This document shows positions 58,328 through 64,000 of a stretch of 64,000 nucleotides of DNA, in pieces. A program made the position numbers and the translations under genes. The notes under the pieces are model-generated. The model made no database searches and was not told where the DNA came from. It saw only the letters and a list, made by a program, of their open reading frames with translations. Each line of letters begins with the position of its first letter. Positions within the stretch are counted from its first letter, which is position 1. Source of the DNA: a virus (taxonomy: Duplodnaviria > Heunggongvirae > Uroviricota > Caudoviricetes); IMG/VR virus record IMGVR_UViG_2595698888_000001, positions 1 to 64,000 of that record. One strand, given 5' to 3'.

Positions 58328-58402
58328 AATTATAATCTCCTAGAGAATCATTTATATATTAATATTTATCCAGTACAAGCCCGAAAATGTATTAATTATC
58401 AC

Positions 58403-58431
58403 TTGACACGAAAACAATAAGCTGCTATACT
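58403..58431 (+). promoter_or_regulatory. promoter TTGACA-17-TATACT upstream of natV
   Basis: atcacTTGACAcgaaaacaataagctgcTATACT. Confidence 0.5.
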
Positions 58432-58568
58432 TTTCAAAGATTTATGAATTTTATATAGTTCAAAATATTTACCTGAAAATTATTGAAACGTAAGAAATTT
58501 TTCTGGTATAATGAACACATCAAGGTGAAGTAGCCTTGCAATCACAATGACTAAGGGAGTCTTAGATT

Positions 58569-59666
58569 ATGAAAAATGAAAAAGTTTATGTATATATTGG
58601 TCGTTTTCAAATGGCACATGCTGGACACGAAGCGACAATCAAACATGCACTTGAAAATGCAGACCGTTTGGTAATTCTTGTTGGCAGTTCTGAACTTGCA
58701 CGTGATCCTAAAAATCCGTTCACCTTTGAAGAACGTCACCAGGTACTGGATGCTATGAGTAGTCGTTTAGCACAGGAAGAATGGGCTAAAGGGCGTTCGG
58801 TAAAGATTAACATCTTACCAATCCACGATTACGTTTATAACAACAGCAAATGGTTGAAAGAAGTACACGAAAAAGTCAAATCTGTAACCAGTTCTTCAAA
58901 TATCTTTATCACTGGTTGTCAGAAAGAAGCTGATGAAAGTACTTTCTATCTGAACTTCTTCCCACAATGGCAACAGGATTTTATTTCTGAGCAAAAAGTA
59001 ATGTCTTTAGATACTCGTGGTGTTCCAACTCCAATGAGTACTATCAACAGTACTGAAATGCGTAATCAATTCTTCAGTACTAAACAAATTCCTGAAGAAC
59101 TGCCAGAAGAAACCAAAGAGTTTCTACAGAAGTTTATGCACACTAAACCAATTGTGTTTGATACGTTGATTGGTGAATTTAATTTCGTACAACGTTATCG
59201 TGCACAAATGAAAGAACAACTACCATATGACAACATTCCGTTCTTAACTGGCGATTCAATGGTCGTATGTGCTGGTCATGTTCTTGTAGTTAAACGCCGC
59301 ACTTTCCCAGGTAAAGGTTTATACGCACTTCCTGGTGGTTTCTTTGATGCGTGGAAAGATAAAGACCAAATTCAAACTGCACTACGCGAATTGAAAGAAG
59401 AAACGAAAATCGATGTTCCACTAAAAGTACTTGAAGGTTCAATCCGTGAAAGTATGGAATTCGGTGATTTCAATCGTTCCTTACGCTGGCGTATTATCAC
59501 CAAATGTGCTTACATCCAACTTCAGGACAATACTTTACCAAAAGTAAAAGGTGCTGATGATGCAGAAAAAGCATTCTGGATGCCACTTGGTGAAATTGTT
59601 CAGAACCGTGATAAGTTCTTTGAAGACCATCTAAGTATCATCGATACTTTCTTGGGTATTCTTTAA
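58569..59666 (+). CDS. natV: bifunctional NMN adenylyltransferase / Nudix hydrolase (NatV-like)
   Basis: N-terminal YIGRFQMAHAGH nucleotidyltransferase motif; C-terminal Nudix box GGFFDAWKDKDQIQTALRELKEETKID. Confidence 0.75.
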   Translation: MKNEKVYVYIGRFQMAHAGHEATIKHALENADRLVILVGSSELARDPKNPFTFEERHQVLDAMSSRLAQEEWAKGRSVKINILPIHDYVYNNSKWLKEVHEKVKSVTSSSNIFITGCQKEADESTFYLNFFPQWQQDFISEQKVMSLDTRGVPTPMSTINSTEMRNQFFSTKQIPEELPEETKEFLQKFMHTKPIVFDTLIGEFNFVQRYRAQMKEQLPYDNIPFLTGDSMVVCAGHVLVVKRRTFPGKGLYALPGGFFDAWKDKDQIQTALRELKEETKIDVPLKVLEGSIRESMEFGDFNRSLRWRIITKCAYIQLQDNTLPKVKGADDAEKAFWMPLGEIVQNRDKFFEDHLSIIDTFLGIL

Positions 59667-59712
59667 TAGTTTTGGAGTACTTCGGTACTCCAATTTTTAA
59701 GTAAGAGGGATT

Positions 59713-60228
59713 ATGTTGTACTGTCAACCGGAAAGTTTTTACAATGAAATGAAATATATTTCTGATAATAAAGAAGACTTTCCAAAGAAACTAAAAGCTG
59801 CGAATTACAATATACCAAATGAACTTTCAAATATCGACCCTATATCATTTTTGATTAAAATGGTATTAACTGAACCTGAACCTGATGAGAATTCTATATA
59901 TGCACTAAGAACGTATGGCACTTACAATTCAACTCAGGTTAACAGTACTGATAGGATAATGCAGGTATATTACGCAACAGTGAGTGATGGTTGTCTTTTT
60001 GTATCTAATCCAAGCGTTGCAAGTATTACATTTGAAGATTCTAAAATGTATTTTACATCATCTGATGAATACGGTGATGAGTACTGGTTTACATTGGAAG
60101 ATATAGCAGAAAATAAACATAATAATCCTTATGCAGAAAGTTCGTACATACGGTACGGAAAAGATATTTTTAATCCTAATAATTTAATGGCTAAAATACC
60201 ACTTAATTTATTACAGAATTTGGTATAA
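59713..60228 (+). CDS. hypothetical protein (171 aa)
   Basis: ORF between natV and nadV. Confidence 0.55.
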   Translation: MLYCQPESFYNEMKYISDNKEDFPKKLKAANYNIPNELSNIDPISFLIKMVLTEPEPDENSIYALRTYGTYNSTQVNSTDRIMQVYYATVSDGCLFVSNPSVASITFEDSKMYFTSSDEYGDEYWFTLEDIAENKHNNPYAESSYIRYGKDIFNPNNLMAKIPLNLLQNLV

Positions 60229-60287
60229 CCAAAATAACCGAAAGCGTTGTAGCTTTCATAAAACTTAATACTAAGGGAGTCTTAGAT

Positions 60288-62955: not shown

Positions 62956-62957
62956 AT

Positions 62958-63158
62958 ATGTTAAAATTGATACTAATTATATCCGTTATTGCATACATCA
63001 TTGTGGGATTTTTAACTTATACTGAATATAAAAAGAAGTTTAATTCAGAAGAAAAAATCTCAACCAAAAAAGTTATCTATATAGTCATTCATGGTTTTTT
63101 ATATGTATTGATTGGATTACTAATTGCAGTACTAGGATATTTGATTTTAACTATGTGA
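62958..63158 (+). CDS. small membrane protein (66 aa)
   Basis: two TM helices. Confidence 0.5.
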   Translation: MLKLILIISVIAYIIVGFLTYTEYKKKFNSEEKISTKKVIYIVIHGFLYVLIGLLIAVLGYLILTM

Positions 63159-63165
63159 GGAAATT

Positions 63166-63612
63166 ATGGCTGGCAAAGGATTCGTCGGCCTTTCCCTTGA
63201 TAAAGAACAGGGAAAGGAAATACAAAAAATATTTAAACTAGCAGGGATCGACTGCTTGACTCCATCAAAATTTCATGTTACAGTGATGTACGATGAAAGT
63301 GAACCTGAAATAGAACTACTTTCTAATGATAAGACTTATAAAGCGAAAATCACTGGAGTAGAGCGTTTAGGTAAACCAGGTGGTGAGTGGGAAGCAATTG
63401 CTCTTTTACTTGATTCACCAGAAATTGAGAAGCGGCATAAAGAGTTGCAAAATGCAGGGTTCAAGCACAAGCATCCTAGTTTTAAATGCCATATGAGTAT
63501 CGTATATAAACCAAAAGATACTGATGAAGATTTAATTGAGTTGATTTATAAATTGGGCGTTCTACCAGAAGAATTAATCTTTGGTGATGAACATTTAGGC
63601 ACAACTGTTTAA
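63166..63612 (+). CDS. 2H phosphoesterase family protein (LigT/cyclic phosphodiesterase-like; possible Acb1-like anti-CBASS nuclease)
   Basis: two H-x-T/S-x motifs: FHVTVMY and CHMSIVY, about 150 aa. Confidence 0.55.
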   Translation: MAGKGFVGLSLDKEQGKEIQKIFKLAGIDCLTPSKFHVTVMYDESEPEIELLSNDKTYKAKITGVERLGKPGGEWEAIALLLDSPEIEKRHKELQNAGFKHKHPSFKCHMSIVYKPKDTDEDLIELIYKLGVLPEELIFGDEHLGTTV

Positions 63613-63624
63613 TTGGTATAAAAA

Positions 63625-63861
63625 ATGAAAAACGACAAAGACTTAACCAAAAATGAAAAACGGCTTTATAGTGGTTCTTGGGTTGATGAGCAAGAAAACG
63701 CTAAAAAAAATGTGGTATGTACTCGTTGTTTTTCAACATACTTTCTCCAATCAGCACCGAGGACTGTACCCGGTACTGATGGATATTATACAAAGGAGCC
63801 TCAATGTCCGAATTGTGGTTGCCGACTATATTTTACGCATTTAACAGGGAAACATGAATGA
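63625..63861 (+). CDS. zinc-ribbon protein (78 aa)
   Basis: CTRC ... CPNCGC. Confidence 0.5.
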   Translation: MKNDKDLTKNEKRLYSGSWVDEQENAKKNVVCTRCFSTYFLQSAPRTVPGTDGYYTKEPQCPNCGCRLYFTHLTGKHE

Positions 63862-64000
63862 ACCTAAATGGTTTTTTATCTAATAATGGGATTCCACGAC
63901 TAATTTTTTGTACTGGTGCTGGACTTTCAAAAGAATCTGGTATTCAGACTTTCCGTGATGCGGCTGGTGAAGGTCTATGGGATGATGTAAGTATTGATGA
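63858..64000 (+). CDS. Sir2-family NAD-dependent deacetylase/ADP-ribosyltransferase, N-terminal part (continues beyond window)
   Basis: LIFCTGAGLSKESGIQTFRDAAG.GLW matches Sir2 GAGIS-ESGIPTFR motif. Confidence 0.6.
   Translation, partial: MNLNGFLSNNGIPRLIFCTGAGLSKESGIQTFRDAAGEGLWDDVSID

Follow-up and report, generated by a model that had tools for sequence, protein, structure and literature searches.

The DNA analysed here, a window of 64,000 nt, is nt 1-64000 of Cronobacter phage vB_CsaM_GAP32 (JN882285 / NC_019401, 358,663 bp), and its end, 58380-64000, is 100% identical to GAP32 at the same coordinates. Two genes for NAD+ salvage lie there on the plus strand, natV (GAP32_112, 58569..59666, 365 aa) and nadV (GAP32_114, 60288..61775, 495 aa), and both are preceded by a short leader of two hairpins, P1 and P2, the second of which holds the Shine-Dalgarno (SD) sequence in its loop. 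This leader is the main subject of the present work. In the deposited record, GAP32_112 is named bifunctional nicotinamide mononucleotide (NMN) adenylyltransferase / ADP-ribose pyrophosphatase, GAP32_114 nicotinamide phosphoribosyltransferase, GAP32_119 Sir2-like and GAP32_069 cytidyltransferase. A previous reading of the window (the original prediction) had listed natV, nadV, a 2H phosphoesterase gene, a Sir2-family gene and a stand-alone NMN adenylyltransferase (NMNAT) gene; open reading frame (ORF) calls and the GAP32 annotation place all of them where it had put them (GAP32_112, 114, 118, 119 and 069). Searches of Pfam and NCBIfam profiles returned CTP_transf_like and NUDIX for NatV, NAMPT_N and NAPRTase for NadV, Acb1 / 2_5_RNA_ligase2 for GAP32_118, CTP_transf_like for GAP32_069 and SIR2 for GAP32_119.

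NatV (phrog_395) aligned over its full length with the NadM-Nudix enzymes of Synechocystis (slr0787, PDB 2QJO, E 8e-64) and Francisella (2QJT, E 1e-43). It has the motifs GRFQ..H.GH, S.T..R and LRELKEET in common with these bacterial enzymes, in the form of GRFQMAHAGH, STEMR (SxTxxR) and the Nudix core RELKEE (REUxEE). It differs from them in the G-x5-E part of the Nudix box, which is broken by a 2-residue insertion and by a K at the position of the first Glu; the reference 2QJO itself has an R at the G position. Thus, where the original prediction counted on a conserved HxGH motif and Nudix box, HAGH and the REUxEE core were found and the G-x5-E part was not. NadV passes the NCBIfam equivalog NF006629 (427 bits against a cut-off of 405), matches Nampt structures in the PDB (7YQO, E 3e-81; human NAMPT, ~1e-70) and keeps the active-site motifs HxFGxRG, GSD, EHS and RPDSGDP. 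The Pfam, NCBIfam and PDB matches together bear out the predicted pairing of a Nampt with an NMNAT-Nudix enzyme as in KVP40 and NARP2. Judged by homology, the region encodes an NAD+ reconstitution pathway of the NARP2 type, and the family membership of both enzymes is firm. NadV would make NMN from nicotinamide and phosphoribosyl pyrophosphate (PRPP); the N-terminal domain of NatV would adenylate NMN to NAD+, and its Nudix domain would recycle ADP-ribose.

At the protein level, NatV and NadV are already known and annotated. The NAD-salvage genes of GAP32 and CBB are mentioned in the CBB genome paper (PMC5259590). The NadV and NatV of Vibrio phage KVP40 make NAD+ from nicotinamide and were named NARP2 on defeating Thoeris and DSR2 (bioRxiv 10.1101/2024.02.11.579819); defence escape and the effect on NAD+ were demonstrated for the KVP40 genes only, and according to the same source NARP2 overproduces NAD+ and is toxic when cloned in E. 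coli. GAP32 resembles KVP40 (Lee et al. 2017, Osterman et al. 2024) in having the same two enzyme families within one phage, in the early-gene region. It differs from KVP40 in that an unrelated ORF, GAP32_113, and a terminator lie between the two genes and that activity and anti-defence effect of the GAP32 pair are predictions; GAP32 NadV is only ~33% identical to KVP40-like NadV. In the GAP32 annotation tables read, which covered nt 1-55,000 only in part, no product had a Prs/Adps-like name (NARP1); no search with profiles was made for it.

Since the gene module is already known, the value of the locus lies in the leader. The original prediction had pointed to an identical 17-nt initiation block before both genes. 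The identity was confirmed and the length corrected to 18 nt: ACTAAGGGAGTCTTAGAT occurs in exact copies at 58550..58567, before the natV AUG at 58569, and at 60270..60287, before the nadV AUG at 60288. Allowing at most 3 mismatches, the window contained 2 matches to this block compared to 0.05 expected, and 0/100 shuffles reached 2. A search of the 358,663-bp GAP32 genome for the 15-nt core with at most 3 substitutions revealed no further copy. Within the block, P2 (58551-58565 and 60271-60285) is formed by the inverted repeat CUAAG / CUUAG around GGAGU, a 5-bp RNA hairpin of about -3.3 kcal/mol that has the SD GGAG in its loop and lies 1-3 nt 5' of the AUG. P1 lies 9-14 nt 5' of P2, across an A/C-rich linker. 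It reads CAAGGU-GAAGUA-GCCUUG before natV (58521..58538, plus strand; 6 bp) and GAAAGC-GUUGUA-GCUUUC before nadV (60240..60257, plus strand), both with a GNNGUA loop. On the minus strand, the nadV P1 (60239-60258) also fits a terminator pattern of hairpin and T-run. We rejected this P1 as a terminator, since the pattern fits the minus strand only and no gene converges there.

Two sigma-70-like sites on the plus strand precede natV, TTGACA-17-TATACT at 58403..58431 and TTGAAA-18-TATAAT at 58483..58512, both scoring 11/12 and TG-extended. A TGAAACG -35 variant, contained in the second site, has been reported for GAP32/CBB (PMC5259590). The natV P1 is expected at the 5' end of the mRNA, because this strong promoter-like site ends 8 nt upstream of it, with a predicted transcription start 2-3 nt 5' of P1. 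Upstream of nadV, a conserved extended -10-like element, TGgTATAAC (60221-60229, plus strand), lies 10 nt 5' of P1.

The leader was traced in related jumbo phages. The complete genomes of CBB, BF and fHe-Yen9-04 each have the 17-mer with an ATG directly after it at just two places, before natV and nadV. It is invariant before both genes, with differing spacers, in CBB, XbC2, BF, fHe-Yen9-04, RaK2 and several uncultivated jumbo phages, and at least 7 jumbo-phage genomes of different genera have it before both genes; between the genera that share it, coding DNA is only ~82-88% identical. Two identical copies 1.7 kb apart could be the functionless outcome of gene conversion or of a local duplication that happened recently. 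We consider this barely credible, since the same 17-mer stands before both genes across these genera in differing flanks and since equivalent hairpins of unrelated sequence precede the orthologues in distant phages and bacteria. Of the two meanings that had been offered for the repeated block, co-regulation is indicated and mere local duplication is not.

The stems vary in a manner that preserves pairing. Before RaK2 natV, the P2 stem is flipped, CUUAG-GGAGUA-CUAAG instead of CUAAG..CUUAG. The P1 stem of natV covaries among relatives, and P1 stems show compensatory changes such as CAAGGC/GCCUUG, CAAAGC/GCUUUG and AGAGAAC/GUUCUCU around the loop G-N-N-G-U-A; within the GAP32 group, P1 is 100% paired, with both-side changes in 4/6 pairs. 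A general phage style of initiation region was rejected as an explanation: an SD-in-loop hairpin of any kind precedes only ~8% of GAP32 genes, and no GAP32 gene besides natV and nadV joins such a hairpin to a P1 with a GNNGUA loop. A GGAG-in-loop hairpin without P1 was observed before two other GAP32 genes (30509-30524 and 40557-40573), which encode proteins of 158 aa and 243 aa without a Pfam match. In one sub-lineage, whose NadV is 79% identical to that of GAP32 (loci L021, ~3440-3494, and L043), the nadV leaders keep P1 with a GAUGUA loop and have CUUC-CGAA-GAGG in place of P2, so that the SD itself is paired.

The same arrangement was found far beyond this group. In phage loci with 38-42% NadV identity, natV, nadV and sometimes pnuC each have an SD-centred hairpin, the stems of which differ between lineages and are often identical within one phage. 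A uniform scan of 79 viral loci detected an SD-in-loop hairpin before 68/79 NadV genes (86%) and 55/70 NatV genes (79%), compared to 43/709 other ORFs (6%; Fisher p 4e-84 for the enrichment). This was also seen independently of hairpin prediction, with start codons chosen without reference to hairpins and positions +-3 to +-7 counted from the A of GGA: for phage NadV, complementarity across these positions was 0.88-0.98, for phage NatV 0.80-0.92 and for other genes only 0.36-0.41, and all four Watson-Crick pair types were present. In 80 bacterial NadV loci, the same feature precedes nadV and nadM, less uniformly. The P1 that is widespread in these loci has a covarying stem of 5-11 bp and a loop AUAGA, less often AGAGA, AGUGA, AAAGA or ACAGA, which is usually closed by a G-C pair. 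A descriptor of P1, linker, P2 and start codon gave 40 matches in phage loci, 29 in bacterial loci and 0 in shuffled sequence, and all but few of the matches lie before nadV, natV or pnuC. The nadV leader of KVP40-like phages has a P2 of only 4 bp.

Besides these genes, a 343-aa SPFH/Band-7 protein encoded 3' of nadV in some gamma-proteobacteria has the same P1+P2 leader (L120:6445-7530, L132:~5513, L177:5435-5486) and may be an extra regulon member. The leader motif was also observed before small phage ORFs of 85-155 aa without a Pfam match that lie beside natV or nadV (L117:1581-1952, L116:2556-, L109:1916-2430, L093:2390-2893, L049:1739-2043, L085:1804-2209). In Thiothrix, a long palindromic stretch 5' of the nadV leader (L170:3846-3940) gave matches on both strands to two microRNA precursor models, with E 8e-4 and 0.13, and is probably a repeat or a terminator.

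A covariance model, R1, was built from 20 leaders. Searching 1.07 Mb of phage DNA with R1 gave 101 matches, 54 of them before NadV, 33 before NatV and 1 before PnuC, and 0.66 Mb of bacterial DNA gave 60 matches, 59 of which are on the gene strand at nadM and nadV starts. In the phage matches, 96% of the cells are paired and 11/12 pairs show compensatory changes; the covariation score was 0.83, versus 0.17 for shuffled sequences and at most 0.09 for slid partners. A MAFFT alignment (A2) was usable only for the top of P1. The structure of the leader is thus conserved, covaries and is specific to NAD-salvage genes. In the alignments fitted by the model, G-U exceeds A-C in the stems by 84 to 20, which favours an RNA over a DNA palindrome.

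This excess bears on the view that the two hairpins, both of which are palindromic at the DNA level, are bound as DNA operators by a dimeric regulator of NAD metabolism, for instance NrtR, NadR or NiaR. NrtR responds to ADP-ribose and governs bacterial nadV and nadM operons (PMC2330246), a point in favour of this view. The published sites, 21-bp palindromes with a GT-N7-AC core for NrtR and TGTTTA-N6-TAAACA for NadR (PMC2330246), do not fit: their consensus cores are absent from the leader, the arms of which vary freely, and the conserved part is the non-palindromic centre (SD GGAG, loop ANAGA). Moreover, the SD invariably forms the centre of P2, and its spacing to the start codon is fixed; the annotation of those parts of the GAP32 record that were read lists no NrtR-like regulator. 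Together with the G-U count, these points make a DNA operator very improbable.

The leader does not appear to be a known RNA. Rfam 15 gave no match at the GAP32 leaders at E <= 10, nor at the leaders of 15 loci at gathering thresholds and of 7 loci at E <= 1, and no description of a nadV/nadM leader or riboswitch was found in the full-text literature, of which coverage was incomplete. We therefore treat the P1+P2 leader as undescribed and as the new part of the finding. The NAD+ riboswitches of class I (nadA motif) and class II (pnuC motif) are likewise cis-acting elements before NAD-pathway genes, and the NAD+-II riboswitch acts through the ribosome-binding site before pnuC (PMC7749635). Unlike these, the leader consists of two independent hairpins without an evident internal-loop aptamer or pseudoknot, and it belongs to nadV and nadM in proteobacteria and their phages. 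A CsrA-type site was considered on account of the GGA in the P2 loop, but the phage P1 loops lack GGA, which makes such a site less likely. Small hairpins at or near the SD or AUG that change ribosome access include the MS2 coat-protein operator, the T4 gp43 and RegA sites and the guanidine-II (mini-ykkC) riboswitch. Phage hairpin operators and guanidine-II resemble the leader in having a conserved loop, free stem sequence and a variable linker. The leader differs from the MS2 and T4 operators and from guanidine-II in its loop sequences, and its two loops are mutually unlike and non-complementary.

We propose, with a probability of roughly 0.6, that the two-hairpin leader works as a translational operator, by which the levels of NatV and NadV in the NARP2-type pathway are set and tied to each other. 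The P1 loop, conserved on top of a stem that varies freely, has the hallmark of a recognition element. Some factor would read the P1 loop together with P2 and stabilise P2, which would lower ribosome loading and thereby feed back on a pathway that depletes PRPP and ATP; candidates for this factor are a protein of the cassette (NatV or NadV, by autoregulation), a metabolite of the pathway or a host factor. We infer the action on translation, its repressive direction and the candidate sensors. There is a reason for tight control, since NARP2 is toxic in E. coli and overproduces NAD+.

A broader proposal, which we hold only tentatively, is that the leader represents an unrecognised regulatory RNA class for nadV, nadM/natV and some pnuC genes, either a metabolite riboswitch or an operator bound by NatV or NadV, which is shared by proteobacteria and was carried with the genes into phages. 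The NARP2 counter-defence pathway would then have feedback control built in. Ligand candidates for a riboswitch would be NAD+, NMN, ADP-ribose, nicotinamide and PRPP.

Several observations weigh against the translational operator. The only universally conserved nucleotides are those of the P1 loop (ANAGA; GNNGUA in the GAP32 group) and the SD, which is little for a ligand pocket. P2, with a stability of -3 to -7 kcal/mol across leaders, is too weak to block ribosomes alone, although it is conserved, and may present the SD rather than hide it. R1 had no match at GAP32-group leaders at E <= 1. Both GAP32 leaders have the order P1, linker, SD-centred P2 and start codon, with a P1 loop of GNNGUA and not ANAGA, and what links them to the ANAGA class is a common architecture, the position and the gene context. 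The pair counts and the G-U/A-C ratio come from alignments fitted by R1 itself, and in the hairpin-independent data on P2 there was no G-U excess outside +-2. The NadR/PnuC gene pair of GAP32 lacks the P1/P2 leader, which is thus no general mark of an NAD regulon in this phage. Finally, the support for an operator is comparative.

The weakness of P2, which leaves GGAG unpaired, is in line with a constitutive element without sensing, in which P2 would keep the SD single-stranded and P1, as a 5'-terminal hairpin, would protect the mRNA from 5'-end-dependent decay; the two copies would then be identical through selection for one optimal initiation region. The start of the natV P1, 2-3 nt past the predicted transcription start, is consistent with this, as is a -10-like box 2-15 nt 5' of P1 in 15/39 phage leaders versus 3/39 at a control position. 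Such an element would leave unexplained why the leader is tied to nadV, natV and pnuC (~80-86% versus 6% of neighbours) from phages to proteobacteria, why the P1 loop is conserved while the stems drift, and why 17 nt are invariant across genera with ~82-88% coding identity. We regard it as rather unlikely, less so than the other rivals of the operator.

A GGAG in a hairpin loop resembles the targets of phage T4 RegB. The leader might thus be a processing or decay signal, in which the P2 loop is cut by a RegB-like SD-directed endoribonuclease or another RNase for joint early shut-off, and both natV and nadV do lie behind early-type promoters. The same leader stands before nadM and nadV in many bacterial chromosomes, where a phage shut-off nuclease is not expected, and the GAP32 annotation, as far as it was read, names no RegB-like gene, so that we judge this explanation improbable.

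The repeated initiation block is the most informative part of the original observation. NARP2 allows phages to escape Thoeris, DSR and other NAD-depleting defences and is a costly pathway; the leader, a compact and portable RNA element that precedes the genes of both enzymes in most phages and in many bacteria that have them, offers a handle on its control. Known NAD+ riboswitches are confined to other phyla and, there, to genes of de novo synthesis and pnuC; for the nadV/nadM salvage route a regulator at the RNA level has been missing, and the leader is a candidate for it. The leader also provides a practical marker for NARP2-type cassettes in metagenomes, and it calls for caution when phages are engineered with NAD-salvage genes stripped of their leaders.

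Between natV and nadV, a terminator-like hairpin on the plus strand (59672..59693; UUGGAGUAC-UUCG-GUACUCCAA followed by a U-run) is kept in XbC2 with a loop change. It is followed by GAP32_113 (59713..60228, plus strand), a lineage-restricted ORF of unknown function (phrog_25832) with 6 homologues, all from close relatives. Its AF2 model has a pLDDT (predicted local confidence) of 76, and the best fold matches, to ITPase-like NTP pyrophosphatases, were non-significant (E 0.06). GAP32_113 is unlikely to be a conserved partner or regulator, given the 6 homologues, the lack of a fold match and the unrelated ORF that RaK2 has at this place despite the same leader type.

The stand-alone gene, GAP32_069 (36888..37445, plus strand, 185 aa), lacks the P1/P2 leader. 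Its close homologues number just 13 and come without exception from related jumbo phages; the motifs GRFNPVHxGH, GSDR and SSTxxR are invariant among them. Its matches to NMNAT families of NCBIfam were all under their cut-offs, and profile searches of the PDB gave weak and mixed matches (E 0.07-0.9; NadR 0.07, NadM 0.08, phosphopantetheine adenylyltransferase (PPAT) 0.3). With an AlphaFold model (pLDDT 89.5), Foldseek ranked NMNAT1 (5e-6), NadM (1e-5), PPAT (2e-5) and NadD about equally, at a template modelling (TM) score of ~0.6. The predicted NadM-like NMNAT is thus an HxGH nucleotidyltransferase; the NMNAT label did not stand, since NMNAT, NadD and PPAT match about equally, and NMNAT activity is a plausible guess. 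The clear second NMNAT of GAP32 is the predicted NadR-like GAP32_353, outside the window, which adjoins PnuC GAP32_354 (266164-268010; L036:2164-4010). The two genes lie side by side as in NARP3 (PnuC + NadR; Yan et al. 2026), and NARP2 and NARP3 may thus both be present in GAP32. This pair, at 266-268 kb, differs from natV and nadV in having no P1/P2 leader, and with GAP32_069 also lacking it, we rejected the leader as a shared NAD regulon mark within GAP32.

Downstream of nadV, 61818..63158 on the plus strand encodes GAP32_115 (membrane), GAP32_116 (phrog_5960, unknown), which phage BF lacks, and GAP32_117 (membrane). GAP32_118 (63166..63612, plus strand, 148 aa), which has HVT and HMS motifs, is a 2H phosphoesterase as had been predicted and passes the Pfam Acb1 (anti-CBASS) model (59 bits, cut-off 27; PDB Acb1 9Q2G, E 3.8e-6). 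Its orthologue CBB_118 (L003:7814-8260) was found in purified CBB virions by tandem mass spectrometry (7 peptides, 60% coverage), and the Acb1-like 2H protein may therefore be injected with the DNA. GAP32_118A (63625..63861, plus strand) is a small phage zinc-binding protein (Pfam Phage_zn_bind_2, 83.7 bits). The Sir2 gene GAP32_119 begins at 63858, as predicted, and continues from 63858..64000 (plus strand) past the window (full gene 63858-64655; L001:8859-9653). Its product has a SIR2 domain (81 bits) closest to CobB and keeps the catalytic His; none of the zinc-binding Cys was found in the stretch aligned to the CobB zinc module (Cys4). Its sequence characterises it as a Sir2-fold protein and not as a canonical CobB. 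Past the window follow a Nudt16-like Nudix + cREC fusion (64655-65560; L001:9656-10558), a membrane protein and PIN-PhoH.

In Serratia phage BF, the sirtuin, 2H, Nudix-cREC and PIN neighbourhood has been predicted to be an NAD-using RNA-repair system (PMC9503650). GAP32_118-122, in the order 2H, Zn-binding protein, Sir2, Nudix-cREC fusion, membrane protein and PIN-PhoH, are syntenic with the BF genes of that sirtuin-centred neighbourhood (Iyer, Burroughs, Anantharaman, Aravind 2022). Unlike in the 2022 description, Pfam puts the GAP32 2H protein into the Acb1 family, a placement that suggests an alternative or additional role beside the predicted RNA repair; the function is a prediction. The Acb1-like 2H, Sir2, Nudix-cREC and PIN-PhoH proteins are predicted to form a separate NAD-consuming unit for RNA repair or counter-signalling. 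Redundant NMNATs together with a Sir2 had been called unusual, which did not hold: Mimasvirus, Eneladusvirus and RaK2-like jumbo phages all share the whole arrangement, which is already published (PMC7824862, PMC9503650), and NAD synthesis by a Nampt and two kinds of HIGH-type adenylyltransferase had been described for jumbo phages (PMC7824862). Further GAP32 genes for ADP-ribose handling are those of the macro-domain protein GAP32_192 (114364-114861; L037:364-861), NudE GAP32_187 and the MutT/Nudix protein GAP32_226.

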